Shown: positions 9,624-57,456, counted from the stretch's first letter. The stretch: 64,000 nucleotides of DNA from Thermoanaerobaculia bacterium (GCA_963666565.1 OY762911.1:864001-928000); one strand, 5' to 3'. Numbers and translations are program-made. The notes: a model not told the origin generated them from the sequence alone.

Positions 9624-9810
9624 ACCCGCCCGTCTTGGGTCGGGAGGGGTCGGCGCCCAGGTGACGCGCGCGCTCGAGAGGAGAAGGGCAGGGTTGCGCT
9701 TGCTCCGCTTCACTCGCTTCGGTTGGGCGTCGGTGAGTGCAACGTCGCCGGCAGTCGCTCGTTCAGAGGCACCTGGGCGCCGACCCCTCCTGACCCGACT
9801 GGGCTGGACG
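9624..9810 (+). repeat. Structured repeat family A, copy A1 (187 bp)
   Basis: ACCCG + long stem GGGTCGGGAGGGGTCGGCGCCCAGGTG / CACCTGGGCGCCGACCCCTCCTGACCC + TGGACG; near-identical inverted copy at 11317-11527. Confidence 0.9.
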
Positions 9811-9847
9811 TCGTTGCCGGCCGGGCTGACGGAGAGGGCTCGTGCCA

Positions 9848-10089
9848 CTGGCTGCGCGGGTCTGCCGGCCCGCATGCCGCCCCGCACTGGCTGCGCGGAT
9901 CTGCCGACCCGCGTGCCGCCCCGCGCTGGCTGCGCGGATCTGCTGACCCGCATGCCGCCCCGCGCTGGCTGCGCGGATCTGCTGACCCGCATGCCGCCCC
10001 ACGCTGGGTGCGCGGGTCTTCTGACCCGCATGCCGCCCCACGCTGGGTGCGCGGGTCTTCTGACCCGCATGCCGCCGGAGGCGGCCAGG
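9848..10089 (+). repeat. Tandem array of six 39-bp REP-like units (family B)
   Basis: Units CTGG(C/G)TGCGCGG..TCT.CTGACCCGCATGCCGCCCC.CG start at 9848, 9887, 9926, 9965, 10004 and 10043; no unique spacers. Confidence 0.9.
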
Positions 10090-10140
10090 AAACGCGCCGC
10101 GAAGCGGCGGCGACCCGGGCAGCGGGGTAGCATCGCCGCC

Positions 10141-11172
10141 ATGGCCGGGCCGGGCGCCGAGGAGATCGAACGGAACATCCTCTCGGGCGCGCCGGATCCG
10201 GACGACCGCCGCGTCGAGCCGTCGCTGCGACCGCGGCGTCTGGCCGACTACCTGGGCCAGAAGAAGATCGTCGATCTGCTCGACATCTACATGCAGGCGG
10301 CACGGGGCCGGGGCGAGCCGCTGGATCATGTCCTTCTGTTCGGGCCCCCGGGGCTGGGCAAGACGACGCTCGCGCACATCGTCGCCCGCGAGATGGGCGC
10401 GGTCCTGCGGTCCACGTCGGGCCCGGTGCTCGAGCGCGCCGGCGACCTGGCGGCCATCCTGACCAACCTGGAGCCGGGCGACGTCCTGTTCATCGACGAG
10501 ATCCACCGGCTCGGCCCGACCGTCGAGGAGATCCTCTACCCGGCGCTCGAGGACTTCCAGCTCGACCTGGTCATCGGCCAGGGGCCGATGGCGAAGACGG
10601 TGCGGATCGACCTGCCTCGCTTCACCCTGGTCGGCGCCACGACCCGCGCCGGCCTGATCACGCCGCCGCTGCAGGCGCGCTTCGGCATCGTCCATCGGCT
10701 CGACTTCTACAGTCCAGAGGTGCTGAGAGTCATCGTCCAGCGTTCCGGCGACCTGCTCGAGGTGCCGGTGGACGAGGGCGGCGCCAGCGAGATCGCCCGG
10801 CGCAGCCGCGGCACTCCGAGGATCGCCAACCGGCTGCTGCGCCGGGTGCGCGACTTCGCGCAGATCGAGGGCGACGGCCGGATCGACCGCGCGACCGCGA
10901 ACCGGGCCCTGGAGCAACTCGAAGTCGACGAGCACGGCCTGGACGAGATCGACCGCAAGATCATGGGCCTGCTGATCCGGCAGTACGACGGCGGCCCCGC
11001 CGGCATCAAGGCCCTGGCCGCCTCGGTCGGCGAAGACGAGGGCACGATCGAGGACATCTACGAGCCGTACCTCATCCAGGAGGGCTTCCTCCAGCGCACC
11101 CGCCGCGGCCGCGTCGCGACCCGACGCGCCTACGAGCATCTGAACCTGCCCGTCCACGGCACGCTCTTCTAA
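10141..11172 (+). CDS. ruvB: Holliday junction helicase RuvB
   Basis: [50 protein letters not shown]. Confidence 0.97.
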
Positions 11173-11219
11173 CTGGGTGCGCGGGTCTTCTGACCCGCTG
11201 CCGCCGAAGGCGGCCAGGA
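11173..11219 (+). repeat. REP-like double hairpin, family B
   Basis: CTGGGTGCGCGGGTCTTCTGACCCGCTGCCGCCGAAGGCGGCCAGGA immediately after the ruvB stop; matches 10043-10089. Confidence 0.85.
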
Positions 11220-11237
11220 GCCCCGCCAGTTCCACGC

Positions 11238-11289
11238 AAGCCTGCGCCGCAGAACGCCGCGAGGCAAGTCCGGGCGCAGGCGCCGCCGT
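11238..11289 (+). repeat. Hairpin repeat, family C
   Basis: AAGCCTGCGCCGCAGAACGCCGCGAGGCAAGTCCGGGCGCAGGCGCCGCCGT; inverted homolog at 46455-46506. Confidence 0.75.
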
Positions 11290-11316
11290 AGCCCCCGCAG
11301 ACTCCGTGTCTGGCCC

Positions 11317-11527
11317 CCGGCAACGACGCCCAGCCCAGTCGGGTCAGGAGGGGTCGGCGCCCAGGTGCCTCTGAACGAGCGACTGCCGGCGACGTTGCAC
11401 TCACCGACGCCCAACCGAAGCGAGTGAAGCGGAGCAAGCGCAACCCTGCCCTTCTCCTCTCGAGCGCGCGCGTCACCTGGGCGCCGACCCCTCCCGACCC
11501 AAGACGGGCGGGTCCGTCCACCGCCGC
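11317..11527 (-). repeat. Structured repeat family A, copy A2 (inverted copy of 9610-9820)
   Basis: Reverse complement of 9610-9820, one mismatch seen by eye over 211 bp. Confidence 0.92.
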
Positions 11528-11609
11528 ATGGCGCCGGCCCGCGCTCGCGTGTACGCTATTGCGCCCTTGGCGCTCTCCCGCCACGACGTGACCTCCGACC
11601 CACCCGACC

Positions 11610-14153
11610 ATGAAGGTACTCAAGTTCGGCGGCTCCTCCGTGGCCGATGCCAGCCGCCTGCGAGCGGCGGCGCGCATCGTGGAGCGGCGGCTCGATGGCC
11701 GTCCCGGCGACGGCGCGGTGGTGGTGTCCGCCCTCGGCGGCGTCACGGACCGCCTCCTCGCCCTGGCCGCAGCCGCGCGGGAGGGCAACGGAAGCCCTGA
11801 AACGGCGCGCGAGGCCGCCGCGCTTCGCGACCATCACATGAAGATCGCGGCCGAGGTCGCCGCCGCGGCCGATCTGCCCGCCCTCGCCGAGGACCTGGAC
11901 GGCCTCTGCGACGGTCTGGACCGGGAACTCGGCGACTGCGCCGAGGCCGGGGCCACCGCCGAGCAACCGCGCGAATCCTGGCTCGACCGGATCGTCTGCC
12001 ACGGCGAGCTCCTGTCGACCCGGCTCCTCGCCGCCGCGTTGCGCGCCCGGGGCCTGCCGGCGGAAGCCTGCGACGCGCGCCCGCTGGTGCGGACGGACCG
12101 TTCCTTCCAGGCGGCGCTCGTCGCGCTCGAACCGACGTTCGCCGCGCTCGCCGCCCACTTCGGGCGTCTCGGCCCGGACGGACCGCTGCAGGTCGTCACC
12201 GGCTTCCTCGGCAGCACGCCGGAGGGCGAGACGACGACCCTGGGCCGTAGCGGTTCGGACCTGACGGCCTCGCTCGTCGGCGCCGCGCTCGACGCCGAGC
12301 GGATCGAGATCTGGACCGACGTGCCGGGCGTGATGACGGCCGACCCGAAGCGGGTCGAGGACGCGCTGCCGATCCCGCGGCTGAGCTACGAGGAGATGCT
12401 CGAGCTCTCCCACTTCGGCGCCCGGGTCGTCTACCCGCCGACCGTCACGCCCGCCCGACGCAAGGGCATTCCCCTTCTCGTCCGCAGCACGCTCGATCCC
12501 GAGCACCCCGGAACCCTGGTCGACGCGGGCAGGGACCGGGAGCGCGCCCGCGGCACCGCGGTCACCGGCATCTCCTCCATCGACGACGTCCACCTCATGC
12601 TGCTGGTCGGCGACAACCTGGTCGGCACCCCGGGCGTCGCGGCGCGCCTGTTCGACGCGCTGGCGGCGAGCGGCGCCAGCGCCATTCTGATCTCCCAGGC
12701 GTCGAGCGAGCACTCGATCTGCTTCGCGGTCGAGCCCGGCGTTTCCGACGCGGCGCGCCAGGCGGTCGAGGCCGAGTTCCAGTCCGAGATCGAGGCCGGA
12801 TCGGTCCGGCCGCCGATCGTCGAGCGCGACCAGTCGATCGTCGCAGTGGTCGGCGACGGCATGCGGGAGCGCCCGGGCATCGCCGGCCGGGTGTTCGGGA
12901 TCCTCGGCCGGCGCGCGGTCAACGTGCGGGCCGTGGCCCAGGGCTCGTCCGAGCGGAACATCTCGATGGTGGTCGCCAGGGCCGACCAGGGCCGGGCGGT
13001 GCGCTGGATCCACAAGGAGTTCTTCCATCGCGCCGCCTCCGGCCGACTCGCGGTCTACGTGCTGGGCGTCGGCGGCGTCGGATCGGCGCTGCTCCGGCAG
13101 CTCGCCGCCGAGCGGGACGCGCTGGAGCGGCGGGGCATCGATCTGCAGTTGCGCGGGCTGGCGAGCTCGCGCTTCATGGAACTCGCGGTGCGCCGCGGCG
13201 GCCGGCGCCTCGACCTCGGCGCCGCCGCGGACCCGGACGGCTGGCGGACCGCGCTGGAGCAGGGCGGCGAAGCGGCCGACCTCGACCGCCTGCTGGAGCA
13301 CCTCGCCGGAACCGCGGCCGGCGGCGGCCGCACGGTGCTGGTCGACGTCACGGCGAGCGGCGCCATGACAGCCGTCTACCATCGCGCGCTCGCGGCCGGC
13401 GCCGCCGTGGTCAGCGCCAACAAGCTCCCCTTCGCCGGGCCGGTCGCGGACTTCCGCGCGTTCCACGCCGACGGCGAAGCGACCGTGTTCCACGAAGCGA
13501 CCGTGGGCGCCGGCCTGCCGGTCCTCCACACGGTCGACATGCTGCTCGGCGCGGGCGACCCGATCGCGTCCGTCTCGGGCGTGTTCTCCGGCACGCTGGC
13601 CTACCTCACCGGCGAACTCGGCGCCGGCCAGGTGTGGAGCGACTCCGTGCGCCGGGCCCACCGCCTGGGGTACACGGAGCCGGACCCGCGCGACGATCTC
13701 GGCGGCCTCGACGTGGCCCGCAAGCTGCTCATCCTGGCCCGGCTGTGCGGCGCCGACCTCGAGATGGACGACGTCGACGTGACGCCCATGCTCGACCGGC
13801 CCGACCTCGCCGGCCTGCCGCTCGAGGAGTACTGGCGGCGCCTGCCCTCCGCCGACGACGAGATGGCGGCCCGCTTCGCCGAGGCGAGGTCGGCCGGACT
13901 CGAACTTGCCTATCTCGCCGAACTCAAGACGGGCGGCGAGGGGGCGACGGCCCGGGTCGGGCTCCGGGCGGTTCCGCCCGACCATCCCGTCGCCGGAATG
14001 CCGGCCTCGGACAACATGTTCGTCTTCCGCAGCCAGCGCTACGACGCCCGGCCGCTGATCGTCCAGGGCCCCGGCGCCGGGGCCGACCTGACCGCCGGCG
14101 GCGTCTTCGCCGACATCCTCCGCGCCTGGGCGGAGCGAGGAGCTTCACCATGA
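11610..14153 (+). CDS. thrA: Bifunctional aspartokinase/homoserine dehydrogenase
   Basis: [31 protein letters not shown], two ACT domains, [26 protein letters not shown]. Confidence 0.95.
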
Positions 14154-15241
14154 CGACTCCGCGCGAACCCCTCCGGGCCGCCGTCCTCGGCGCCACCGGC
14201 ACCGTGGGCCAGCGCTTCGTCACCCTGCTGGCGGAGCACCCGTGGTTCCAATTGACGGCGCTCGCCGCCTCCGAGCGTTCCGCCGGCAAGGCATACCGCG
14301 ACGCGGCAACCTGGATTCAGACCCGGCCGATCGACGACGCGGTCGCCGCCATGACGGTCCAGACGATCGACGAGTTGATGGACGGCGCCAAACTTCCCGG
14401 CGGCGAACTGGACATCGTCTTCTCGGCCCTGGACGCCGGCGTCGCACGGGACGTCGAGCCCGCGTTCGCCCGCCGCTGCCTGGTCGTCACGAACGCCAGC
14501 GCGCACCGGATGGACGCCGGCGTTCCCCTGATCGTGCCCGAAGTCAACCCGGACCACCTCGACCTGCTGCCGCCGCCCGAACGCGGCAAGGCGCTTCCGG
14601 CCGGGATCGTCGCCAACCCGAACTGCTCGACGATCGGCCTGGTGCTGGCGCTCAAGCCGCTGGCCGACGCCTTCGGCTTCGAGCGGATCTCCGTCGTCAC
14701 CCTGCAGGCGGTGTCCGGCGCCGGCCTGCCGGGCATCTCCAGTTACCAGATCCTGGACAACGTGATTCCCTGGATCTCCAGCGAGGAGGAGAAGCTGGAG
14801 ATCGAGACCGGGAAGATCCTCGGCCGCGTCCGCGGCGGAACGATCGAGCCGGCCGAGTTCGCCGTGTCGGCCCAGTGCAACCGCGTTCCCGTCGTCGACG
14901 GGCACACGCTCTGCGTGTCCGTCGACCTCCAGGGCGCACCGGCGCTGGAGGACGTCCGGGAGGCGTGGCGGACCTTCCGCGCCGAGCCGCAGGAGCGCGG
15001 GCTGCCGTCGGCCCCGGCGCTGCCGACCGTCTACCTCGGCGACGACGAACCGCCCCAGGCGCGCGTCCACCGGGACCTGGGCAACGGGATGACCACCTCG
15101 ATCGGCCGGCTGCGGGAATGCCCGATCCTCGGCTACCGGTTCGTCGCCCTCTCGCACAACACCCTGCGGGGCGCGGCCGGCGGAGCGCTGCTCGCCGCGG
15201 AACTTGCCGTCGCCCGCCATCGGCGGCGGGACGGCGCATGA
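14150..15241 (+). CDS. asd: Aspartate-semialdehyde dehydrogenase
   Basis: [41 protein letters not shown]; ATGA overlap with thrA. Confidence 0.95.
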
Positions 15242-16221
15242 CGAAGATGGCGAGGGCGTTCGCCCCGGCGTCCGTCTCGAACATCGCCTGCGGCTTCGAC
15301 ATCCTGGGCTTCGCCCTGCAGTCGGAGAGCGAGGACGGGCCGGGCCCGGGAGACGTCGTCACGGCCAGCGAACGCGGCGGGGGCGGTCCGGTCCGGATCA
15401 CCGCGATAGCCGGCGACGAAGGCCGGCTGCCGCTCGAAGCGGAGCGCAACACGGCCGCCGTCGCCGCCCGGGCCCTGCTGGACGGCGAGGCGCCGGGAGC
15501 GGCCGTCGACCTGGAGATCGAGAAGCGCATGCCGCTGGAGAGCGGCCTCGGTTCCAGCGCCGCCAGCGCGGTGGCGGCGGTGGTCGCCGTCGACGCGCTG
15601 CTCGGCCTGGAGTTGCCACCGGCGGCCCTGCTCCGCTACGCCCTCGCCGGCGAGGTCCTGGCCAGCGGCGGCGCACACGCCGACAACCTGGCGCCGTCGC
15701 TGCTCGGCGGGATCGTGCTGGTGCGCTCGCTCGAACCCGAGCCGGACGTCGTCGAACTGCCGGCGCCGGAGGGGCTGACCTGCGCCCTGGTGCGCCCCCA
15801 TGCCGATGTGAACACGAAGGAGTCGCGGGCAAGCCTCGGGCGCGACCTGCCTCTCGAACGCGCCGTGACCCAGTGGGGCAACGCCGCGGCGCTGGTGGCG
15901 GCGCTCTACCGTTCCGACCTGGAACTCCTGTCCCGCGCCCTGGTCGACGTCGTTGCCGAACCGGTCCGCGCTCCCGGCGTGCCGGGCTTCCACGAGGCGA
16001 AGGCGGCCGCGATCGAGGCCGGCGCGCTGGGATGCAGCCTGTCGGGCAGCGGCCCGGCGCTGTTCGCCCTGTGCGACGGCCCGGCCCGCGCCGGGCGCGC
16101 GGCGGCGGCCATGGCCGGCGCGATCGAGTCTGCGGCCGGCGTCGGCTGCGACCGGCTCGTCTCGCGCCTGCCGGCGCCGGGCGCGCGGCTGATCGACGGC
16201 GGTTCGGAAGGCGGGGCGTAA
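15238..16221 (+). CDS. thrB: Homoserine kinase
   Basis: APASVSNIACGFD, GHMP motif PLESGLGSSAAS, HADN, SGSGP. Confidence 0.95.
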   Translation: MTKMARAFAPASVSNIACGFDILGFALQSESEDGPGPGDVVTASERGGGGPVRITAIAGDEGRLPLEAERNTAAVAARALLDGEAPGAAVDLEIEKRMPLESGLGSSAASAVAAVVAVDALLGLELPPAALLRYALAGEVLASGGAHADNLAPSLLGGIVLVRSLEPEPDVVELPAPEGLTCALVRPHADVNTKESRASLGRDLPLERAVTQWGNAAALVAALYRSDLELLSRALVDVVAEPVRAPGVPGFHEAKAAAIEAGALGCSLSGSGPALFALCDGPARAGRAAAAMAGAIESAAGVGCDRLVSRLPAPGARLIDGGSEGGA

Positions 16222-16265
16222 CGTGCGCCTCGTCAGCGACGCCGGTTCGGAAAGCAAGGCGTAGC

Positions 16266-17603
16266 GTGCGCTTCGTCAGCACCGCCGGCAAGGCCCGGCC
16301 GGTCAGCCTCGCCGAGGCGCTGCTCGAAGGGCCGGCCCCGGACGGGGGACTGTACGTGCCCGAGTGCCTGGCGCCGCTGAGCGCGGACGAACTGGCGCGG
16401 CTGCGGACGTTGCCCCTGGCCGGCCTTTCCGCCGTCCTCGGCCGCCGCCTGTTCGGGCCGGAGGTGCCGGAGGAGCAACTCGCGGCGCTGCTCGAGGATG
16501 CGCTCGACTTCCCGATCCCGCTCGCCCCGATCGAACCCGGCATCCACTGCCTGGAGCTGTTCCACGGGCCGACGCTCGCCTTCAAGGACGTCGCCTCGCG
16601 GGTCATGGCCCGTCTGATGGCGCGGTTCGCGGCCGCCGGCGGCGAGGAGACCACCGTCATCGTCGCGACGAGCGGCGACACCGGCAGCGCCGTGGCCCAC
16701 GCCTTCGCCGGCGTTCCCGGGTTCCGGGTCTGCGTGCTGTACCCGGACGGACTGGTGACCGAGGCGCAGCGGCGCCTGTTCACGACGCTGGGCGGCAACG
16801 TCACCGCCGTGGCCGTCGAAGGCGCGTTCGACGACTGCCAGAGCCTGGCCCGGGCCGCGTTCGCCGACGGCGAGTTGAGGCGCCGGCGGCCGCTCGCCTC
16901 GGCGAACTCGATCAACATCGGCCGGTTGCTGCCGCAGGTCTTCTACTACTTCCACGCCTGGGCGCAGCTCCCGTCGCCGCCGGACGGCGGCCCGGGCGAA
17001 CCGGTCGTGTTCTCCACCCCGAGCGGCAACTTCGGCAACCTGACCGCCGGGCTCATCGCGAAGAAGATCGGCCTGCCGGCGGCCCGCTTCGTCGCCGCGA
17101 CGAACGCGAACGACGTCGTGCCGGCGTACCTCCGGAGCGGCGACTACCTGCCGCGCGGTTCGGTCGCCACGATCTCGAACGCGATGGACGTCGGCAACCC
17201 GAGCAACTTCACCCGCATCCTCCACCTCTACTCCAGCGCCCCAGACGCCAGCGAGGCCGCGCCGCTCGACCGCATCCGCCGGGATCTTTCGGGCCGCGCC
17301 TTCGACGACGACGAGACCCGCCGCGCCATGCGCGACGTCCACGAGCGCACCGGCTACCTCCTCGACCCGCACACCGCCGTCGGCTACCTGGGCCTCAAGG
17401 CGGAACTCGAAGCCCGCGACGGCGGAACGGGCATCGTGCTGGCCACCGCCCACGCCGCCAAGTTCGCCGAAACCGTCCAGGCCGCCGTCGGCATCGACCC
17501 GCCGCCGCCGCCCGCCCTCGAACGCTGCGCCGACCTGCCCGAACGCATCGTCGAGATCCCGGCCGACTACGCGGCCCTCCGCGACGTGCTGCTGGGCGGC
17601 TGA
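16266..17603 (+). CDS. thrC: Threonine synthase
   Basis: DGGLYVP, LELFHGPTLAFKD, ATSGDTG, SANSINIGRL, PSGNFGN, DPHTAVG. Confidence 0.95.
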   Translation: MRFVSTAGKARPVSLAEALLEGPAPDGGLYVPECLAPLSADELARLRTLPLAGLSAVLGRRLFGPEVPEEQLAALLEDALDFPIPLAPIEPGIHCLELFHGPTLAFKDVASRVMARLMARFAAAGGEETTVIVATSGDTGSAVAHAFAGVPGFRVCVLYPDGLVTEAQRRLFTTLGGNVTAVAVEGAFDDCQSLARAAFADGELRRRRPLASANSINIGRLLPQVFYYFHAWAQLPSPPDGGPGEPVVFSTPSGNFGNLTAGLIAKKIGLPAARFVAATNANDVVPAYLRSGDYLPRGSVATISNAMDVGNPSNFTRILHLYSSAPDASEAAPLDRIRRDLSGRAFDDDETRRAMRDVHERTGYLLDPHTAVGYLGLKAELEARDGGTGIVLATAHAAKFAETVQAAVGIDPPPPPALERCADLPERIVEIPADYAALRDVLLGG

Positions 17604-17610
17604 GGCGGGT

Positions 17611-17796
17611 ACCTGTCCGGGTCCGGGCCGACGGGAGGGTCCCAGGGGCACGCTCGCGCTCTCCCGGCAGGAGGGAAGCTGGCGCTCGCTGTTGTCGGCT
17701 GCGCTTCACGTCGGCGACGGACGACGTGGCCACGCGGGCAGGCGCTTGCCTCCGACGCCCTGGAACCCTCCCCTCGGCCCGGACCCGGACTGGACG
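17611..17796 (+). repeat. Structured repeat family A, copy A3 (186 bp)
   Basis: Stem GTCCGGGTCCGGGCCGACGGGAGGGTCCCAGGG / CCCTGGAACCCTCCCCTCGGCCCGGACCCGGAC enclosing ACGCTCGCGCT...GGCGCTCGCT...CGCTTGCCTCC. Confidence 0.88.
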
Positions 17797-17821
17797 ACGT
17801 CGGCCGCTGGTGTGGCCCGGT

Positions 17822-18871
17822 CTACCGCCCGCGCATCGGGGTGTGGATCAACCCGTCCCGCTCCCTGCTCCCCTGGCCAAGGCCCCAGTCGGCCGGCGTC
17901 ACGAGTTGCCCCTCGATCCGGGCATCGTCGGGAACACGCACTCCCGGCGCAACGATCGTCTCCCGAAGTCTCGCTCCGGCGCCGACGCGGGCGCCGGGCA
18001 TCAGCAGGCCCCGCTCGACGACGGCGCCTTCGCCGACGCGGCTGCCGGTTTCGAGCACGCTGCGCTCCACCGTGGCGCTCCGGGCCAGCGAGACGCCGGG
18101 GGCGACGAAGCGGCGGCGGCGCTTGCGGCGGCCGGCGGTGCGGCCCCAGTCGAGGGCGCCTTCGAGGTAGCGGCGAGGGGTTCCCAGGTCGTGCCAGGGG
18201 CGGCGGCAGCGGAAGGCGGCGATCCGGGCGCCGGAGCGGAGGAGCGGCTGGTAGAGGCCCTCGACGATGTCGCTGGACGACGGCCGCGGCGGGATCCGCT
18301 CGACGACCCGGCGGGAGAGAACGTGGAGGCCCTGGAAGGTCCGGTTCCGGCCGCGGGCCGAGCCGACTCGCAGGTCGCGGAGGCCGACGACCAAGCCGCG
18401 CGGATCCACCTCCACGCCGCCGCCCAGGGCCGCGGCCGGCGCTTCGCGGCCGATCTGCAGGGTGACGTCGGCGCCGCTGCGGCGGTGGCGGGCGAGCGCC
18501 TCGCGGATCGGCCAGCGGCAGAGCGAGTCGCCATTGACGAGCACGATGTCGTCGGCGCCGGCGAGGAAGTCGCGCAGATTGACCACGGCGCCCAGGGTGC
18601 CGAGCAGGTCCGGTTCGACCGCGAAGCGGAGGTCGATGCCGCGGGCGGCGGCCTCGCTCCCGAGCCCGCGCCGCACCGCGTCGCCGAGGTGGAAGAGGTT
18701 CACCGCCGTCTCGCAGCCGGCGCGGTGGAGAATCTCGATCGTCCGCATGGCGACGGCTCGGCCGGCCACCGGCAGCAGGGGCTTCGGCAGGGCGCCGGTC
18801 AGCGGCCGCAGCCGTTCGCCCCGGCCCGCGCAGAGCACGAGCGCACGCACGCGCCGGGCGGCGCCTCTCAC
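17822..18871 (-). CDS. NDP-sugar pyrophosphorylase / nucleotidyltransferase family protein
   Basis: LCAGRGERLRPLT..LPKPLLPV, NGD, WHDLGT, C-terminal left-handed beta-helix repeats. Confidence 0.88.
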   Translation of the reverse strand: MRGAARRVRALVLCAGRGERLRPLTGALPKPLLPVAGRAVAMRTIEILHRAGCETAVNLFHLGDAVRRGLGSEAAARGIDLRFAVEPDLLGTLGAVVNLRDFLAGADDIVLVNGDSLCRWPIREALARHRRSGADVTLQIGREAPAAALGGGVEVDPRGLVVGLRDLRVGSARGRNRTFQGLHVLSRRVVERIPPRPSSSDIVEGLYQPLLRSGARIAAFRCRRPWHDLGTPRRYLEGALDWGRTAGRRKRRRRFVAPGVSLARSATVERSVLETGSRVGEGAVVERGLLMPGARVGAGARLRETIVAPGVRVPDDARIEGQLVTPADWGLGQGSRERDGLIHTPMRGR

Positions 18872-19542
18872 TGCTGGGTGACGCCGGGTACGCGGGTCTT
18901 CTGATCCGCCGCCGCCGCCGAAGGCGGCTTCGACGCGCCGGCCGAAGGCCGACCTAGCTCTGGAAACACCATGTCCCGGGGCAACCCCTCGCGCCCCGTC
19001 CGGTAGTCGCGGTAGATCGCAAGGTAGTCGCGCGGATCCGCCCGCTCCGGGTCGATGCCGCAGCGGCGGCAGACGCGCTCGATGCCGCCATCGTCCAGGT
19101 CCGGATCGACCCGCTCGACCTCCACGAAATCGCCGGCCGGGGTCCGGTCGAGGGCGACCTCGCAGCCGAGCAGCAGCCAGCGCTCGCGGACCTTCTCGTA
19201 GCGCGCCGCGACCTCGAAGCCGAGCGACTCCAGCAGCAGCCGAGCCGCCGCCGGGTCGTCGACGGCGAACTCGTGCTCTGTCCGCTCCTTGACGCCGCCG
19301 CGGATCTCCGGCGCCGACTTCCAGGTCAGCCGGCTGCCGCCGCCGTCCGTCCGCAGGCGAAGCAGCTCCCGCCGGGTCCGCAGCCGCTCCGAGACGGGCG
19401 CATCCGTCCGGTCGAAGACCTGGTTCGACTCCATCGCGGCTTCGCGTTCCAGCCGGCCGCCGGCGGCGCGGACGCGCTCGCGAACCCGGTCCAGGTCGGC
19501 GACCGCGACCTTGACCTCGCGCTCGCGCCGGGGAGCGGTCAA
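18868..19542 (-). CDS. CYTH family protein (class IV adenylate cyclase-like)
   Basis: EREVK, LLRLR, LTWK, YEKVRERW, VALD, FVEVE; TTG start overlaps the peptidase stop. Confidence 0.85.
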   Translation of the reverse strand: MTAPRREREVKVAVADLDRVRERVRAAGGRLEREAAMESNQVFDRTDAPVSERLRTRRELLRLRTDGGGSRLTWKSAPEIRGGVKERTEHEFAVDDPAAARLLLESLGFEVAARYEKVRERWLLLGCEVALDRTPAGDFVEVERVDPDLDDGGIERVCRRCGIDPERADPRDYLAIYRDYRTGREGLPRDMVFPELGRPSAGASKPPSAAAADQKTRVPGVTQQ

Positions 19543-20975
19543 GCGTTCGCGGCGCCCGCCGCGCAGCCCCCGAGACGGTCGAGCACGCGGACCACCGTGC
19601 GGATGCCCTGGTAGAAGTTGTCGAGGTCCATCTTCTCGTTCGGGGCGTGCAGGCGGTCGTCCGAGAGGCCGAAGCCGATCAGCAACACGGGCGCGTCCAG
19701 CACCTCGGCGAGGGTCGAGACGATGGGGATGGACCCGCCCTCGCGGACCCGCACCGGCTCGCGGCCCCATGCTTCGCGCACGCCCTCGAGCGCCGCGTCG
19801 ACGAGCGGGCCGTCGAGGTCGACGAGCACCGGCGGCGCTCCGTTCAGATTCACCACCTCGACCTCGATGCCCGGCGGCGCCAGCGAGCGCATGAAGTCCG
19901 CGAAGAGGCGGAACAGCCGCTCCGGGTCCTGGTCCGGCACCAGCCGCATGGACACCTTGGCGCCGGCCCGGTTCGCGATGACCGTCTTGGCGCCGGGACC
20001 CTGGTAGCCGCCCCACAGGCCGTTCACGTCGCAGGTCGGCCGCGCCCACACGCGTTCGAGGGTCGTGTAGCCGGCCTCGCCCCACAGCGCGGACGCGCCG
20101 ATCTCCTCGCCGTACTTCGCCTCGTCGAACGGCAGCGCCGCGAACGCCTCCCGTTCCGCCGCGCCCAGGGGACGCACGTCGTCGTAGAAGCCCGGCACGA
20201 GGATCCGGCCGTTCTCCGGGTCGCGGAGCGCCGCCAGCATGGTGCCCAAGACGTTCAAGGGGTTCGCCACGGCGCCGCCGAACGTGCCGGAATGCAGGTC
20301 GCGCCCCGCGCCGCGCACCCGGACCTCGGTGTAGAGCAGGCCCTTCAGGCCGTAGAGCACGGACGGCTGGCCCGGCCCGTACATCGAGGTGTCGGAGACG
20401 AGCGCCAGGTCGCAGCCCAGGCGTTCGGCCGCCGGGCTGCGGACGTAGGCCTCGATCGCCTCGCCGCCGCACTCCTCCTCGCCCTCGATCAGGAACTTCA
20501 CGTTGACCGGCAGGCTGCCGGTCTCGGCCATGATCGCCTCGACCGCCTTGATGTGGGTGAAGGACTGGCCCTTGTCGTCGGTGGCGCCGCGGGCGACGAT
20601 CCGCTCGCCGCGCGCGCCGGTCTCGATCGCCGGCTCGAACGGGTCGTTGCGCCACTCCTCCAGCGGATCGACCGGCTGCACGTCGTAGTGGCCGTAGAAC
20701 AGGACGGTCGGACGGCCCGGAGCGCCGAGCCACTCGCCGTAGACGAGCGGATGCCCCGCGGTCTCGACGATCTCCGCCTCAAGCCCCGCGGCCTCCAGCC
20801 GCTCCCTGACGAAGCCGGCGCAGCGGCGCACCTCGTCCGCGTAGGCCGGATCGGTCGAGACGGACGGGATCCTCAGGTACTCCTTCAACTGCTCCAGGCT
20901 GGCGCCGGTCTCCCGATCCACGCGCTCAAGGACTGCGTCGACGCTCGTCCCGGCGCCGCCCCGGCGGTCAGTCAT
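19539..20975 (-). CDS. M20 family dipeptidase
   Basis: [42 protein letters not shown]. Confidence 0.92.
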
Positions 20976-21624
20976 CGAAGCTGCGCCCGGTCTTCTCCCA
21001 GTCGGCAAGGAACTGGTTCAGACCGATGTCGGTCAACGGGTGCCGGTAGAGCTGGCCGAGGGTCTTGAACGGCAACGTGATGACGTCGGCGCCCATCTCC
21101 GCCGACAGCACGACGTGGACCGGATGGCGGGCCGAAGCGACCAGCACTTCGGTCTCGAAGTCGTAACGGGAGTAGATCCGGATCACCTGCCGGATCAGGT
21201 CCATGCCGTCCTGGGCGATGTCGTCTAGGCGGCCGACGAAGGGCGAGATGTAGGCGGCGCCCGCCTTCCCGGCCAGCAGCGCCTGGGCCGGCGAGAAGCA
21301 GAGGGTCACGTTGCACCGGATCCCCTCCTCGGCCAGCCGCCGCACCGCCGTCAGCCCGGGCGGGCCGAGCGGCACCTTGACGACGACGTTGTCGGCCAGG
21401 CCGGCGAGCCGCCGGCCTTGCTCGAGCATCCCGTCGAGATCCGTCGCCAGCACCTCGCCGCTGACCGGTCCCGGCACGAGTTCGGCGATCTCCTTGACGG
21501 TCGGCAGGTAGGGCTTGCCCTGCTTCGCGATGAGGCTCGGGTTCGTGGTGACGCCGTCGACCATGCCCCATTCCAGGCCGGTCTCGATCTCCCCCACGTC
21601 GGCGGTGTCGAGAAAGAACTTCAT
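20968..21624 (-). CDS. tal: Transaldolase / fructose-6-phosphate aldolase (short type)
   Basis: [45 protein letters not shown]. Confidence 0.92.
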
Positions 21625-21638
21625 CGTGGCGCTCCCCG

Positions 21639-24260
21639 CTAGTTGACTGGCTCCGCCTCGGCCGCTTCGGCGTCACCGTCCTCTTCTTCCTCGCCGCGAT
21701 CCGGGATGCGAGCCAGGGCGACGATGCGGTCGCCCTCGTCGAGGTCCATCACCTTGACGCCCTGCGTGGCGCGGCCGATCAACGACACGCTGCCGGCCCC
21801 GATGCGGATGATCTTGCCCTGGTGGGTGATCAGCATGAGGCCCGTGTCCTCGCTCACCTCGCGGACGCCGACCACGTCGCCGGTGCGATCGGACACCTTC
21901 AGATTGATGATGCCGAGGCCGCCCCGCGACTGCAGGCGGTACTCGTCGATCGCGGTGCGCTTGCCGAAGCCGTTCTCGCTCACCGTCAGGAGCGTCGTCT
22001 CCGGCGGTCCCGGTTCCGTCCGGGCGCTCGACGGGCGTTCGGACCGGTTCGCCACTGGCGCGGGTTCGCCCGGCCCGGGTTCCGCGGACTCGTCTCGCGG
22101 CAGCAGGCACTCCGCCGACACGACCCGGTCGCCGGGGCGCAGGCCGATCCCGCGCACGCCCCGGGTGGCGCGGCCGAGGGACCTCAGGTCGCTCTCCCGG
22201 AAGCGGATCGCGTTGCCCTTCCGCGTGGCCAGCACGAGTTCGCTGCCGCTGTCCGTCGCCTTGACGGCCAGCAGGCGGTCGCCCTCGTCGATCCGCAGCG
22301 CGATGATGCCGCTGGGGCGCGGCCGCGAGTACTCGGAGAGCGCGGTCTTCTTCACCACGCCGGCTTCGGTCGCGAAGGTCAGGAAGCGGTCCTCGGGAAA
22401 CTCGCGGACGGAGGCCGTGGCGGCGACCGTCTCGCCGCTGTCGAGGCGCAGCAGGTTGACGATCGCCTTGCCGCGCGCCGCCGGACCGAGCTGCGGGATC
22501 TGGTGCACCTTGAGCCAGTAGCAGTGGCCCCGATCGGTGAAGACCATGATGTAGCTGTGGGCGGACGCGACGTAGAGCTGCTCCACGAAGTCGCCGTCGC
22601 GAGTGCTCATGCCGGTCCGGCCCTTGCCGCCGCGGTGCTGCGCGCGGTAGAGGCTGAGCGGCGACCGCTTGATGTAGCCGGACCGGGTGACCGTGATCAC
22701 CATGTCCTCGTCGGCGATCATGTCCTCGATCGTGATGTCCGAGGAATGGGCCACGATCTCGGTGCGCCGCGGATCGCTGTAGCGCTTCTCGATCGCGTCG
22801 AGCTCCGAGCGGATCTCCCGCAGCAGCAACGCGTCGGACCCGAGAATCGCGCGCAGCCGTTCGATCTCGGCCATCAGTTCCCGGTGCTCCTGCTCGATCT
22901 TCTCGCGCTCGAGGCCGGTCAGCCGCTGCAGGCGCATGTCGAGGATCGCCTGGGCCTGGGGCTCGCTCAGGGAGAAGCCCTCGACCAGGCGCTCCTTCGC
23001 TTCCGGCGGCGTGCGGCTGGCGCGGATCGTGGCGATCACCGCGTCCAGGTGGTCCAGCGCGACGAGGAGTCCCTCCAGGATGTGGGCGCGCCGCTCGGCG
23101 CGGGCCAGGTCGTGGCGGCAGCGCCGGATGACGACGGTGCGCCGGTGGTCCAGGAAGTGGCGCAGCAGGTCGCGCAGGGTCAGCACCTGCGGCTGGCTGT
23201 CGACGATCGCCAGCATGTTCATGCCGTAGCTGACCTGCAGCTTGCTCATCTTGTAGAGGGTGTTCAGGACGACCTCCGCCACCTCGCCCCGCTTCAGGTC
23301 GATCACGATCCGGATGCCGTCGCGGTCGGACTCGTCGCGCAGGTCGCGAATGCCCTCCAGCTTCTTCTCGCGCACGAGTTCCGCGATCCGCTCGATCAAC
23401 CGCGCCTTGTTCACCTGGAACGGGATCTCGGTCACGACGATCGACTGCCGGTCCTGGCCGACCTCCACGATCTCGGCGCGGGCGCGCACCTGGATCGAGC
23501 CGCGGCCGGTGGCGTAGGCGCTGCGGATGCCGGCGCGGCCGTGGATGAAGCCGCCGGTCGGGAAGTCCGGCCCGGGCAGCTCCTCCATCAGCTCGTCCAG
23601 GGTCGCCTGGGGACGGTCGATCAGGAGCTTGACGGCGGCCAGCGCCTCGCCCAGGTTGTGGGGCGGGATGTTCGTCGCCATGCCGACCGCGATGCCGGCC
23701 GAGCCGTTGACCAGCAGGTTCGGAATCCGGGCCGGCAGCGGCGAGGGCTCCTGCTCGGAACCGTCGTAGTTCGGCACCCACTCGACGGTGTCCTTGTCGA
23801 TGTCCTCGCGCAGCAGCTCCTCGGCGATCCGGGTCAGCCGGACCTCGGTGTAGCGCATCGCGGCCGGGTTGTCGCCGTCGATCGAGCCGAAGTTGCCCTG
23901 GCCGTCCACCAGGGGATAGCGCATGGAGAAGTCCTGCGCCATGCGCACCACCGTGTCGTAGATCGGCCCGTCGCCGTGCGGGTGGTACTTGCCCATCACG
24001 TCGCCGACGATGCGCGCCGACTTCTTGTAGGCGCGGCCGGCGGTGTTGCCCGCCTCCCACATGCCGTAGAGGACGCGCCGGTGAACCGGCTTGAGACCGT
24101 CCCGCACGTCGGGCAGGGCGCGGCCGATGATCACGCTCATCGCGTAATCGAGGTAGCTCCGGCGCATCTCGCGCTCGAGCTGCACCGGCACGGTGTCCCG
24201 GCCCGGCGACGGAGGCTCGGGCGGCCCAGGCGGCCGGGTGGGATCTTCGCCGTTGCTCAC
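21639..24260 (-). CDS. gyrA: DNA gyrase subunit A
   Basis: [26 protein letters not shown], GyrA-box QHRGGKG. Confidence 0.97.
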
Positions 24261-24270
24261 GGTCGGCCCG

Positions 24271-26826
<2,556 letters not shown>

Positions 26827-26913
26827 CTATCTGAAAACAGGAGGTTTAGAAGAACGCCTCCGGCTTCCGCCCGCGGCGGGAGAACGCCAGGTCTTCGGCG
26901 GAGCTCCGGCGCC

Positions 26914-28026: not shown

Positions 28027-28029
28027 CTA

Positions 28030-28200
28030 TCTCCTCCTGGAAGAGAAATATACACCAACAGAACAGCCGTAGAAGGGGCCGGAAGGAAGCGCGGAAATCT
28101 GTCATAAATCCTTTACAATCAAACACTTGAGATAGCCGGTACGCGGTCGGCGGAGAGCGGACGGAGCGGCGGATGGATTGTGCATTCTGCGGACTTCGGG
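28030..28200. other. Probable oriC unwinding region (dnaA-dnaN intergenic)
   Basis: AT-rich island in GC-rich DNA; IHF consensus AATCAA-ACAC-TTG at 28117-28129; TAGAAG-GGGCC trio-like/GC-clamp motif next to dnaN; DnaA boxes only degenerate. Confidence 0.6.
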
Positions 28201-28375
28201 CGCCTGGCCGCGGCCGGCGGCGATTCTCTCCGCAGACCGGCCGAAACGGATGACCCGGAGATCCGCCGCCGCTTCGAGGATCCCTTCGCGGTTCATCCGC
28301 CGCAATTCCGCAGGCTCTGACGCGCGAGCGCGCCGGCCGGGTTCGTTTCCGGGCGCGGCGACGGCGGCTCTACGC

Positions 28376-29926: not shown

Positions 29927-29951
29927 GCTTTTCCGCACAATGTGGAAAAGC
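29927..29951. promoter_or_regulatory. Inverted pair of DnaA-box-like sites upstream of dnaA
   Basis: GCTTTTCCGCA-CAA-TGTGGAAAAGC; TGTGGAAAA has one mismatch to TGTGGATAA. Confidence 0.55.
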
Positions 29952-34091: not shown

Positions 34092-34274
34092 CGTCCAGCC
34101 CGCGGAGGTGCGGGGGAGGGGCCCCAGCGGGCTGGAGGCAAGCGTCTCCCCGGACCGTCGCGTTGACCGACAACGCAGCGCAGCGCAGCCGACCGAAGCG
34201 AGCGCTGGCTCCCCATTCCCCGATCAAGCGCGAGCGTCCGCTGGGGCCCCTCCCCCGCACCTCCGCGGGCGGGT
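34092..34274 (-). repeat. Structured repeat family A, copy A4 (183 bp)
   Basis: Perfect stem GCCCGCGGAGGTGCGGGGGAGGGGCCCCAGCGG / CCGCTGGGGCCCCTCCCCCGCACCTCCGCGGGC; minus strand carries ACGCTCGCGCT, GCGCTCGCTTCGGTCGGCTGCGCT and CGCTTGCCTCC. Confidence 0.88.
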
Positions 34275-41347: not shown

Positions 41348-41533
41348 ACCCGTCCGGGGCCGGACCGAGGGGAGGGTCCCAGGGGCACGCTCGCGCTCTC
41401 CTGGTGGAGGGGGAGCAGGCGCTCGCTGTTGTCGGCTGCGCTTCACGGCGGCGTCGGTCGACGTGGCGGCGCGGGGAGTCGCTTGCCTCCGACGCCCTGG
41501 GACCCTCCCCTCGGTCCGGCCCCGGACTGGCCG
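41348..41533 (+). repeat. Structured repeat family A, copy A5 (186 bp)
   Basis: Stem GTCCGGGGCCGGACCGAGGGGAGGGTCCCAGGG / CCCTGGGACCCTCCCCTCGGTCCGGCCCCGGAC; core close to copy A3. Confidence 0.9.
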
Positions 41534-41648: not shown

Positions 41649-41691
41649 CTGGGTGCGGGGATCTTCTGACCCGCTGCCGCCGGAGGTGGCC
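41649..41691 (+). repeat. REP-like family B copy (degenerate)
   Basis: CTGGGTGCGGGGATCTTCTGACCCGCTGCCGCCGGAGGTGGCC. Confidence 0.75.
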
Positions 41692-55317: not shown

Positions 55318-55430
55318 GTTCCGCCCCCGAATGCTGCTTGCCGTTGTCTTGTCGTCCGCGAACTTCCTGTCCTGGCGCTCACCCGCCGAAGATGACCGCT
55401 GCCCCTCCGGGCGGCTGCGGACGCCCCACA

Positions 55431-55476
55431 CGGGGTGCGCCGGCGTCTCCGCCGGCAGCCGCCGAAAGGCGGCCAG
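55431..55476 (+). repeat. REP-like family B variant with covaried stem
   Basis: GGGGTGC-GCCGGCG-TCTC-CGCCGGC-A-GCCGCC-GAAA-GGCGGC-CAG. Confidence 0.7.
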
Positions 55477-55588
55477 AGGATGAGGGCGACGAACGTCGCT
55501 CGGTCAATCATATGGGCACGTCCATCCATATGGGCATGTCCACCGAGCCGCTGACTGTGCCGCTGGCCGACCGGGGCGTTGCCGGCTG

Positions 55589-56761
55589 TTGAGCGGTCAT
55601 CAGGACCTCAGCGCCGCCTTCGAGCAATTCGCGCGCGTCGAGGCGCCGGACCTCGACTCGCCGACGTACGCGGAACTTGCGGCGGGCGTGGCCGGAGACG
55701 GCGAACTGCTGGCGCTGGCGGCGCGCCGGCAGGCGGGTCAGCCGGCGCCGAACATGCTGTTCGGGGCGGTGCAGTACCTGCTCCTGCAGGGAGTCGAGCA
55801 CCCGCTCGCGGCCCACTACCCGATCCTGGCCGGCGGTGAGCGTTCGGCGGGGCCGAGCCGGCCGGTCGCGCCCTCCGCCGGCGCCGGCGGTGGTTCGCCG
55901 GCGTCCGGGCCGGGCGCCGGGAACGAAGGCGTTCGGCCCGCCTTCCCGCTGTTCCGCGAGTTCTGCCTCGAACACCGGGAGAGGGTTGCCGAACTGATCG
56001 CGACCCGAAGCACCCAGACCCAGGTGGTGCGGCGCTGCACCTGCCTGCTGCCGGCCTTCGGCCTCGTCCACAGGGAAGCCCGCGCCCCGCTGGCGCTGGT
56101 CGACATCGGGGCCAGCGCCGGTCTCAACCTCCTCTTCGACCGCTACTCCTACCGGTACTGGAGAGTCGCGCGCGCGCCCCGCGAGCCTCGCGCACGGCGT
56201 GGCGACCCGCCTGCGCTCCTGCGCTGGGGACCGCCGGACGCAGCGGTCGCGCTCGACGCCGAGCTGCGGGGCGGCGAGCTGCCGCCGGCGCCGCCCGGCG
56301 AGATCCCGGTGGCTGGCCGCGACGGAATCGACCTCAACCCGATCGACCTTGACGACCCGGACCAGTTGCTCTGGCTGCGCGCGCTGATCTGGCCCGAGCA
56401 TGTGGAGCGGCACGCGCAACTAGTCGCCGCCGCGGCCGAGCTGAAGGAGCGCCCGGTACGGCTCCACCGAGGCGACGCGACGGCCATGCTCGGCGGCGTG
56501 CTCGACCGGGTTCCCGCCGGCGCCGCGCTCGTCGTCTACTCCACGATCGCGCTGTACCAGGTGCCCCCCGCAGGCCGCCGCCGGATCGCGCGAACCCTGG
56601 CCGAACGCAGCCGCTTGCGCCCCGTCTGGCAGGTCGCGCTCGAAGGCGTCCATCCTCCGAGGCTGACGCTGACGCGCTACCTCGACGGGTCGCGGCGCGG
56701 AACGGAGCTGCTCGCCCGCGCCTCGCCCCACGGCTGGTGGATGGAGTGGCGCGGCGCCTGA
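55589..56761 (+). CDS. DUF2332-family protein
   Basis: SPTY, PNMLFGAVQYL, TQT..VRRC, IGASAGLNL.FDRY, WLRALIWPEH, PHG.W.EW. Confidence 0.78.
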   Translation: MSGHQDLSAAFEQFARVEAPDLDSPTYAELAAGVAGDGELLALAARRQAGQPAPNMLFGAVQYLLLQGVEHPLAAHYPILAGGERSAGPSRPVAPSAGAGGGSPASGPGAGNEGVRPAFPLFREFCLEHRERVAELIATRSTQTQVVRRCTCLLPAFGLVHREARAPLALVDIGASAGLNLLFDRYSYRYWRVARAPREPRARRGDPPALLRWGPPDAAVALDAELRGGELPPAPPGEIPVAGRDGIDLNPIDLDDPDQLLWLRALIWPEHVERHAQLVAAAAELKERPVRLHRGDATAMLGGVLDRVPAGAALVVYSTIALYQVPPAGRRRIARTLAERSRLRPVWQVALEGVHPPRLTLTRYLDGSRRGTELLARASPHGWWMEWRGA

Positions 56762-56860
56762 GCCGCTCGGCGGCGCTTTCCCGCGCGGCGATTCAGTACC
56801 GGGCTTCGCGGGCGGGCCGACGAAGTCGGCCGTTGTCGTCTGTGCGGGCGAAGGAGGCGA

Positions 56861-57207
56861 TGGTGGAGGCGGTGGGAATCGAACCCACGTCCGCGAGACT
56901 CGGCGCGAGGGATCTACGTGCGTAGCCTTCACTCGAAGTGTCGCCGCCGGCTTGGGTAGAAGGCCACCACGGCCAACGGCCTAGCCCCGAGAGAATCCGG
57001 CCTGGGTTCGGAGCAGCATCCAGGCGTTCGATCCACTTTGTCGTCGCTCCTGCCGGCGCCGTGAATCAAGGCCCCGGCAGGACCGTGACGGCTTCTAAGC
57101 CGCCAGTGCCAATTCGTCGTTGGCGAGTGTGAAAGGTCCGGTTAGCGAGTCGGACTCGGCACGCAACCCCCGAACCGCATGATCTCCCGTCGAAGCCATG
57201 CGCCCCC
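56861..57207 (-). ncRNA. ssrA: tmRNA (SsrA), tag peptide ANDELALAA
   Basis: 5' GGGGGCGCATGGCTTCGAC and 3' GGTTCGATTCCCACCGCCTCCACCA form an acceptor stem with G3-U; internal frame reads ANDELALAA-stop; TAGAAT -10 at 57219-57224. Confidence 0.95.
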
Positions 57208-57273
57208 AGGGACCGGCGATTCTACACGAGTCGCGACGGCGTGCGCGTCGGTTCGCGTGCCGGCGGTGGTGGC

Positions 57274-57456
57274 ACCCGCCCGGCGTGTGGCTGAAGGAGG
57301 GGTCCCAGGGGCCGCTCGCGCTTTCCTGGTGGACGAGGGGTCGGCGCTCGCTTCGGTCGCCTGCGCTCCACGTCGGCATGGGCGTGTGTGACGGCGTGGC
57401 CGTCGCTTGGCTCCAGCCCCCTGGGACCCCTCCTTCAGCCCGCGCCGGGCTGGACG
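57274..57456 (+). repeat. Structured repeat family A, copy A6 (183 bp)
   Basis: Stem GCCCGGCGTGTGGCTGAAGGAGGGGTCCCAGGGG / CCCCTGGGACCCCTCCTTCAGCCCGCGCCGGGC; core CGCTCGCGCT, GGCGCTCGCTTCGGTCG, CGCTTGGCTCC. Confidence 0.88.

Follow-up and report, generated by a model that had tools for sequence, protein, structure and literature searches.

Family A, a repeated element of 183-190 nt that occurs six times in a 64,000-nucleotide window of DNA from a Thermoanaerobaculia bacterium (GCA_963666565.1, OY762911.1:864001-928000), retains an elaborate fold even as its sequence drifts. The window, meaning here that whole stretch, is G000:C1:864001-928000, part of a single-contig genome (G000) of about 72% G+C. 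Family A is specific to one genus of sponge-type Acidobacteriota, with about 90 copies per genome, and most copies are old, vertically inherited at fixed loci, and decaying by internal deletion. It is a real and apparently undescribed variant of structured interspersed repeats; no published description was found in the literature searched (supplementary material aside). The explanation favored here, held with somewhat more confidence than doubt, is that family A is a non-coding interspersed repeat, non-autonomous and confined to this genus, of the kind represented by REPIN, BIME, and ERIC, although differently built. On the same modestly favorable footing, its sequence and placement suggest that it is old, dependent on its structure, and co-transcribed into 3' untranslated regions (UTRs), with a candidate enzyme for its movement and a putative role in the host.

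The initial annotation of the window had listed six copies (A1 to A6; Table 1), and a whole-length alignment confirmed all of them at the same positions and on the same strands. When the six-copy profile was searched with nhmmer against the 4,786,144-base genome, 94 matches were obtained at E<=1e-3 (best E 1e-40), 86 of which are near full length (>=120 model positions) and lie on both strands all round the chromosome; the profile search found no seventh copy in the 64-kb window. The six copies align end to end over 231 columns, including 20-nt flanks, with a mean column identity of 75%, and the 86-copy alignment spans 213 columns with a mean column identity of 65%. The layout first proposed for the element (an ACC(C/T)G start, a long G-rich 5' arm, CGCT boxes, a C-rich 3' arm, and a CTGG(A/C)CG end) is correct, as are the two compensatory swaps between A3 and A5, which can be read from both the alignment and the folds. 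Two other details required revision: the arms were put at ~33 bp, and the closing stem is actually ~38-40 bp; A1 and A2 were taken for diverged copies, and they are not degraded, belonging instead to a distinct subfamily of 21 copies. The element bounds fall where they were drawn, but the conserved unit extends beyond them, by ~14 nt upstream of the stem (GCGGCG(T/G)(C/T)GGNNGC) and by at least 10 nt downstream of the terminal CTGG (ACG(T/G)CGTCGG). A CGTCGG motif therefore stands on either side of family A, at about -10 to -5 and +5 to +10 relative to the stem, and many copies are preceded by G-rich, GGCG-type leaders of variable length. The possibility that the 5' flank motif is a general gene-end signal was ruled out, since only 3% of the 63-nt windows that follow other genes contain it, a frequency equal to the coding background. 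Nested and internally deleted copies are also present in the genome, and the five shorter profile matches inspected have ordinary genes next to them and are truncated copies instead of the ends of some longer element, the other three matches below 120 positions being outside that inspection.

Each copy has a ~38-bp, near-perfect closing stem round a branched interior, with two inner helices in an asymmetric core of ~110 nt. The middle part of the closing stem differs from copy to copy, and the core is conserved. For copy A5, the fold z-scores are -7.6 as RNA and -7.55 as DNA, and the opposite strand folded as RNA gives -8.7, with none of 200 shuffles folding as well in any of the three cases. 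RNAalifold applied to the 86 copies returned 37 pairs, of which 33 show changes on both sides; three further pairs (101/165, 103/163, and 45/172) came from scanning for columns that are complementary and covary, and pair 106/160, which extends the same helix and never varies on both sides, was also added. With the 41-pair structure, 93.3% of cells are standard-paired, compared with 72.6% after shuffling (reached in 0/500 shuffles) and 42-50% when the partner is slid along. The covariation score over the 41 pairs, measured on copies that are related to one another, is 0.517, as against 0.163 for shuffled data and at most 0.13 with a slid partner, and double changes are found in 36 of the 41 pairs. 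The inner helices are short (2-6 pairs, 28-40 nt apart) and 92-100% paired, and they too change in a coordinated manner (e.g., pair 61/92 is GC in 67 copies, CG in 16, and AU in 3; pair 107/159 is GC in 46, AU in 29, and CG in 7; pair 113/154 is CG in 73 and UA in 13). Two variable inner segments gave no consensus fold in RNAalifold, and their single-sequence folds are no better than those of shuffles. The covariance model scores far higher on one strand (~140-160 bits) than on the other (32-48 bits), showing that the core is asymmetric and strand-specific. The proposal that the fold rather than the sequence is kept is thus borne out by covariation among the 86 copies, for the closing stem and inner helices alike.

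The further proposal that selection acts on a folded single strand is not supported as the sole cause: the fold is kept, but template switching between inverted repeats is another route to covariation. Functional RNAs normally accept G·U much more readily than A·C. In the stems of family A, 89 G·U cells were counted against 67 A·C cells, and in arm-by-arm alignments 36 against 47, so G·U is not favored over A·C, which argues against a purely RNA-level constraint. Swaps from G-C to C-G are very frequent among the stem pairs, a pattern that fits one-step inverted-repeat correction better than stepwise RNA compensation. A need for folding on both strands (e.g., where convergent transcripts meet, as at 39 of 81 copies) would also yield parity between G·U and A·C. 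Two reports describe template switching as perfecting quasipalindromes and homogenizing inverted-repeat arms (PMC7202029, PMC8604942). Taken by themselves, the lack of a G·U excess, the abundance of G-C to C-G transversion swaps, and this reported homogenization of arms favor the view that family A is functionless palindromic DNA, the neutral relics of an old burst, whose arms are matched by template switching or intramolecular conversion and not by selection.

The age and inheritance of the copies bear on the same question. Pairwise identity among the copies of the genome centers on 55-70%; nearest-neighbor identity is below 80% in 51 of the 86 copies and reaches 90% in only 16. Copies that are at least 93% alike have flanks no more similar (0.61/0.60 identity) than those of random pairs (0.60/0.59), and since the flanks of near-identical copies are unrelated, these copies arose through insertion and not through duplication of larger segments. 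For 14 of the 23 loci that could be matched between G000 and another genome, both genomes have the site filled. Among 31 genomes of the genus, the site between ruvA and ruvB is filled in 16, always in the sense orientation, and the site after ruvB in 12, always antisense. Same-site copies from different species are 0.81 identical, and the fourfold sites of the adjacent ruvB are 0.71-0.73 identical; in 82-86% of species pairs the element has changed less than these fourfold sites, and the two divergences are only weakly correlated (r about 0.3). Within a species, the inverted copies flanking ruvB can be nearly identical (99.5% in G000, 96% in G009 and G014, 91.5% in G022) or more distant (~80% in G045 and G048), and identity between species at the ruv sites is about 78-81%. 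The homogenization within species (91.5-99.5%), together with the deletion decay seen in several lineages, again suits a functionless palindrome, a view that is nevertheless improbable: unpaired core motifs and short inner helices are kept across copies only 55-70% identical, divergence is slower than at synonymous sites, and orientation and position are strongly biased, when the inversion of the spacer that accompanies template switching should erase such a bias. The conserved unpaired core, covarying inner helices, slow divergence, and orientation bias together argue against a purely mutational cause. At the ruv locus of G014 (L234), the sequence preceding ruvB matches the beginning of thrA in reverse complement, and the ruvB segment therefore appears to have been flipped by recombination between its two inverted family A copies. 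Besides a normal ruvB, the genus members G051 and G054 contain extra diverged RuvB-like matches (68-77% identity) in open frames of 615-710 aa.

The distribution of family A is narrow. In a first draw, the covariance model found it in 23 of 24 same-genus genomes, and a family-wide draw (E<=1e-5) detected it in 39 of the 41 other genus members; the 15 genomes sampled from 12 sister genera gave no match. Matches per genus genome range from 0 (G021 and G044, both 3.7 Mb) to at least 46; these two members have no copy, and four others have 2-10. Among the matches listed by a core-pattern scan of named genomes are records titled Candidatus Multivorans, Thermoanaerobaculia, Holophagales, and Acidobacteria, and the covariance model confirmed at full length all six of the named Acidobacteriota loci tested; the site orthologous to that of copy A4 is also filled in two named Acidobacteriota genomes (loci L100 and L200). 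Six single pattern matches in other phyla, which include one weak partial match to the model (L104, 18.6 bits), are consistent with the ~35 chance matches expected by a hand estimate. A phage origin was considered because the core pattern occurs in three viral contigs, and it was rejected when none of the three was confirmed by the covariance model. It had initially been suggested that the element could be an unannotated structured RNA, and a comparison with Rfam gave no family for it: at the gathering threshold the whole window matches only transfer-messenger RNA (tmRNA), signal recognition particle RNA, and two tRNAs, and at E<=1 in Rfam 15 ten loci gave a real tRNA-Sec and three chance-level miRNA/snoRNA matches far below thresholds, with no match for family A. 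The tRNA-Sec gene (74.1 bits; L036 498-592, near 685,800 in G000) adjoins the family A copy c685886-.

Comparison of filled and empty sites provides some insight into how the element entered new positions. At G000 1440817 the flanks abut, and six loci from other genomes (including G018 and G007) carry at the same place a block of ~300 nt in which the hairpin element is preceded by a G-rich leader and followed by a trailer, TCGGTGCC(G/T)G; the comparison reveals no clear duplication. The 'empty' site at G000 3724429 retains the leader and ACCCGCC-TGG (i.e., two stem feet joined), and like remnants occur in G013 at the locus of G000 208228 and in G016 at ruvA-ruvB; all three are probably remnants of hairpin deletion. 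Truncated copies are found at the 208228 locus in G047, G049, and G009. Target-site duplications (TSDs) were sought by permutation in narrow and wide windows: with 24-nt windows, the longest common substring is 5.02 for a copy's own flanks and 5.02 for permuted flanks (248/500 permutations reach the observed value), and with 100/50-nt windows the values are 6.78 and 6.63 (52/300 permutations reach). The initial observation that no TSD is visible therefore holds in both tests, as does the description of family A as the reverse of a classical miniature inverted-repeat transposable element (MITE), in that the arms vary, the core is conserved, and no TSD was found. Long terminal inverted repeats, many dispersed copies, and a copy number that varies between species are all features that an insertion sequence (IS) deletion derivative moved by a DDE transposase via its terminal inverted repeats would possess. 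Such a classical MITE is scarcely credible here, however: the permutation tests and the filled and empty versions of G000 1440817 gave no TSD, the arms vary from copy to copy exactly where a binding site for a transposase ought to be constant, conservation is concentrated in the interior, and the five shorter matches inspected are truncated copies, in a search for a longer form that did not extend to every genus genome.

The copies lie between genes, as initially described, but their placement is not random, most being directly after a stop codon. A co-oriented coding region is found upstream of 70 of the 86 copies, and this sense bias holds for upstream genes transcribed with replication (41/48) and against it (29/38). 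Relative to replication itself, with the origin near 0.88 Mb (cumulative GC skew minimum) and the terminus near 3.2 Mb, 50 copies are co-oriented and 36 are not (p=0.16). In 60 of the 86 copies a co-oriented open reading frame (ORF) ends between -200 and +80, and in 44 its stop codon is 3-52 nt upstream; TAG is the stop in 33 of the 60 ORFs, compared with 34% genome-wide (p ~0.0009). For the 81 copies with callable neighbors, the flanking genes are convergent in 39, tandem in 34 (26 sense, 8 antisense), and divergent in 8, and the nearest coding sequence lies at a median of 30 nt from the 5' end of a copy and 240 nt from its 3' end. At 75 loci in other genomes, the upstream 180 nt are coding in the sense direction in 30 and antisense in 4, and the downstream 180 nt are coding in 1, a check that is not independent because many of these sites are orthologous to sites in G000. 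Placement and orientation follow transcription and not replication, which favors an activity as RNA, and copies directly behind stop codons in the sense orientation would be transcribed into 3' UTRs.

These observations give weight to the alternative that family A is a host-selected, cis-acting RNA module, a 3'-UTR element read by a trans-acting protein or RNase, with its mobile origin being secondary; its role could be, for example, in mRNA stability, 3'-end formation, or localization for ~90 genes. This alternative, which is tentative and judged rather unlikely, draws on the orientation that follows the upstream gene (70/86) and not replication (50 versus 36), the 44 copies that begin within 3-52 nt of a stop codon, the scarcity of copies between divergent genes (8/81), the conserved and strand-specific core, the covarying inner helices, the slower change than at fourfold sites, and the fixed orientation of the ruv-site copies across 16 and 12 genomes. 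It has to accommodate the lack of preference for G·U over A·C, which is unusual for a selected RNA, the very common G-C to C-G swaps, two genus members with no copy and four with 2-10, A2-type copies kept antisense to both neighbors, 16 of 86 copies that are not behind a co-oriented gene, and a partner protein of which none is known. A doubtful variant of this idea combines both histories: a mobile RNA module, i.e., a three-way junction spread by DNA transposition, kept by the host, and read by a protein in the 3' UTRs of ~90 genes. The initial comparison with a 6S-like RNA finds little support, given ~90 copies, placement inside operons and 3' UTRs, and no promoter-like site at A1-A3; the promoter scan covered window positions 9000-19000 (A1-A3 only) with promoter types that exclude those of this phylum. 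No terminator-like site was called at A1-A3 either, in a scan limited to loops of 3-8 nt and so unable to call family A in any case.

Table 1. Positions of the family A copies in the window, of the leader ahead of A1, and of third-repeat examples elsewhere.
Feature	Position	Strand	Context
G-rich 8-bp tandem leader GGCGGAGC, 9.6 copies	9539..9616	+	between ruvA stop and copy A1
Copy A1	9624..9810	+	CTTCACTCGCT...GTTCAGAGGC subfamily; between ruvA and ruvB, sense to both
Copy A2	11327..11513	-	99.5% identity to A1; between ruvB and thrA, antisense to both
Copy A3	17611..17796	+	start 10 nt past first base of thrC stop; sense; convergent gene downstream
Copy A4	34092..34274	-	5' end 6 nt from recR end (recR 34280-34867, minus); sense to recR
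Copy A5	41348..41533	+	start 35 nt past stop of R3H (jag-like) gene; sense; upstream of rsmG
Copy A6	57274..57456	+	67 nt from tmRNA gene 5' end (56861-57207, minus); no co-oriented gene directly before
Third repeat	G000:C1:2085944-2086050		
Third repeat	G000:C1:4638048-4638200		
Third repeat	L226 (G006) 2498-2683		

Inverted pairs of copies raise another possibility, namely that family A is a recombination or boundary site for gene cassettes, with inverted pairs bracketing acquired genes in the manner of attC or MITE-flanked cassettes. The seven pairs of copies in G000 whose members are no more than 2 kb apart are all convergent (+ then -), several pairs enclose segments with a lower G+C content at third codon positions (e.g., 208228-212300, with 0.80-0.82 compared with 0.85-0.96 for genes of the window), and the ruvB segment of G014 is apparently inverted between its flanking copies. 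The bracketed DNA at G000:C1:208228-212300 is a 3.7-kb, two-gene cassette whose translations appear restriction-modification-like; G043 has it (78% identity), and G013 lacks it at the corresponding locus. Despite these cases, a boundary function is very improbable, as most copies are solitary, one of the bracketed genes is the core gene ruvB, no integrase or recombinase is nearby among the 48 window ORFs scanned, and two of the seven pairs are simply the paired 3' ends of convergent genes, 60-100 bp apart.

The search for an enzyme that might move family A leads to a single gene. Of the 48 window ORFs scanned, none encodes a transposase, HUH protein, reverse transcriptase, or integrase, so that the initial remark that the window has no transposase holds for these ORFs. 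Elsewhere in the genome there is a single Y1 gene (749057-749932; 291 aa, HIHALL motif), the best match of which is the NCBIfam model 'REP-associated tyrosine transposase' (RAYT), at 76.3 bits just below the cut-off of 80. This RAYT-like gene is flanked by inverted copies of a 23-28-nt repetitive extragenic palindromic (REP) sequence, GGTGCGCGGGTCTTCYGACCCGC, which also occurs in the window at 9848-10076, 11179-11198, 18890-18909, and 41655-41674; the first of these positions, between A1 and ruvB, is an array of GGTGCGCGGGTCTTCYGACCCGC with a 39-bp period and 5.9 units that lies beside family A. Matches to the small REP number 92 in G013, and there are none in G021, G044, or G002. On sequence grounds, the small REP and the RAYT-like gene form a classic REP-RAYT system and a second repeat family. 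A RAYT homologue is present in 24 of 41 genus genomes, with a match in 0 of 6 genomes that have 10 or fewer family A copies versus 24 of 35 with more (hypergeometric p ~0.003, calculated by hand and ignoring the kinship of the genomes), a link between RAYT presence and family A copy number that is suggestive only. Four of the six low-copy genomes were tested for the small REP, and all were without it. G000 also has two RVT_1 matches; the TnpB zinc-ribbon domain PF07282 has no match in this genome, IscB itself not having been searched for.

Several known systems resemble family A in part, and the closest are REPINs and related REP-BIME repeats with their RAYTs. Like family A, these are described as non-coding extragenic repeats present in tens to hundreds of copies (PMC3116915, PMC8266576), as having a predicted long single-stranded DNA or RNA hairpin with compensatory changes on both sides (PMC3116915), a property shared by family A, and as persisting vertically for long periods (PMC3116915, PMC8266576); a single-copy RAYT-like gene is present in G000 as well. 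According to the same papers, however, a REPIN is a symmetric inverted pair of conserved REP 16-mers with a variable spacer and flanks the RAYT gene (PMC3116915, PMC8266576), and REPIN doublets are randomly distributed in extragenic space (PMC3116915). Family A has variable arms round a conserved, asymmetric ~110-nt core with helices of its own, is not built from the RAYT-flanking REP, does not lie beside seven RAYT genes, occurs in genomes without a RAYT match, and has a strong bias towards the sense side of stop codons. Units of the ERIC type are imperfect palindromes of 100-170 bp, found in transcribed intergenic DNA of related species with a variable copy number, and they are not known to have a dedicated transposase. 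The enterobacterial intergenic repeat units ERIC/IRU (RU-1, 127 bp) share size and habitat with family A (PMC2759123). Family A differs from ERIC in its unrelated sequence, other host phylum, three-way core, covarying inner helices, and much longer, near-perfect closing stem.

The GTAG- and CGTC-tagged REPs (Di Nocera et al. 2013) are located downstream of coding regions, between unidirectional or convergent ORFs, and resemble family A in this downstream placement, in being plausibly transcribed, and in a CGTC-containing motif; the CGTC-tagged REPs are reported to have no dedicated transposase, and both kinds are 20-40-bp stem-loops whose stem measures 8-9 bp and which carry the tag immediately at one end (PMC3733652). 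Family A, by comparison, is 183-190 nt long, and its CGTC motifs are 5-10 nt outside the stem. Non-autonomous derivatives of IS200/IS605 (palindrome-associated transposable elements, PATEs) move as single strands, without TSDs or conserved terminal inverted repeats, and have structured ends and copies without an ORF; family A is like them in having no TSD found, no terminal inverted repeats conserved between copies, a structure, and no ORF. It is unlike the guide-RNA elements linked to TnpB or IscB, with no PF07282 match, no Rfam match, and no replication-strand bias (p=0.16). Integron attC sites also conserve their fold while their sequence varies, as does family A, and they work in single-stranded form and in one orientation; their length is 57-141 bp, and they have R and L boxes and form arrays beside an integrase, whereas family A is dispersed, with no integrase among the 48 window ORFs scanned. 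Family A therefore lacks the defining properties of a classical MITE, a REPIN, a CGTC REP, a TnpB-linked element, and an intrinsic terminator.

The favored explanation, a non-autonomous interspersed repeat of a new build, assembles these results as follows. Anatomically, the unit comprises the ~110-nt asymmetric core, a junction with two inner helices, the ~38-bp closing stem, and the CGTCGG-bearing flanks. Its copies may have spread to unrelated sites, without target duplication, through a structure-recognizing enzyme acting in trans on a folded single strand, for which the Y1/HUH transposase of the RAYT type is the best but a weak candidate. Most copies have persisted for long periods by vertical inheritance at fixed loci, with decay by internal deletion, and their pairing is presumably maintained in part by constraint and in part by template switching or by conversion of one arm to match the other inside the inverted repeat. 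The likely effect on the host is that a long hairpin in the 3' UTR acts as a transcript-end barrier or a processing site.

A number of points weigh against this explanation, and the first concerns the enzyme. The initial annotation had proposed handling in trans by an HUH/Y1-type nuclease, and the single RAYT-like gene gives that proposal a lead, but the repeat that flanks the gene is a different, 23-nt REP that is absent from the family A consensus, no family A copy was found within ~1.5 kb of seven RAYT genes, and 11 genomes without a RAYT match keep from 14 to at least 46 family A copies. The initially suggested look for a copy abutting a transposase, HUH, reverse transcriptase, or recombinase gene likewise gave none, either beside the seven RAYT genes or among the 48 window ORFs scanned, and the association of RAYT presence with copy number may only reflect small genomes that are poor in repeats. 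The pairing statistics are affected by the derivation of the 41-pair structure from the same sequences that were used for testing it. Orthologous filled and empty sites were compared, as had initially been recommended, with no clear duplication at G000 1440817; three 'empty' sites, however, still contain the leader and 9 nt from the start of the element and are probably left over from deletions, so that the exact ends are defined mainly by a single locus. As for function, no T-run follows the stem in the consensus, the downstream sequence being ACG(T/G)CGTCGG, so family A is not a canonical intrinsic terminator, and a hairpin role alone leaves the conserved asymmetric core and the 80% orientation bias unexplained.

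Family A is not the only repeat in the surrounding intergenic DNA. A third repeat, consisting of two short hairpins (GTCCGCCAGCGGAC; CATGTGGCGC...GCGCCACATG), replaces the 5' arm of some family A copies (Table 1), indicating that these intergenic regions are mosaics of several repeat families. The window itself is the replication-origin region, with dnaA (28376-29725), dnaN, gyrB, and gyrA within ~16000-30000 and rnpA, yidC, rsmG, parA, and parB further on. Near its end (60707-61494), a gene for a Phd/YefM-type antitoxin (104 aa) precedes a 158-aa ORF without a Pfam match, and the two may be a toxin-antitoxin pair.

REP, REPIN, and ERIC sequences have been studied mainly in Proteobacteria, and their movement and roles remain partly open. 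Family A offers a data-rich case in an uncultured genus of Acidobacteriota, with thousands of copies in ~40 species and shared loci at which gain, loss, and compensatory change can be tracked in place. Its build is unusual, with a conserved asymmetric core inside a variable stem that is placed behind stop codons, and it can help to separate RNA selection, recognition of folded single-stranded DNA, and template-switch repair as causes of covariation. For the genomes of this genus there are also practical consequences, since family A repeats break assemblies and promote inversion (e.g., of ruvB in G014) and the homogenization of flanking copies, and the element should be masked or modeled during annotation. 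If the reading as a mobile RNA module is true, family A would represent a genus-specific post-transcriptional regulon.

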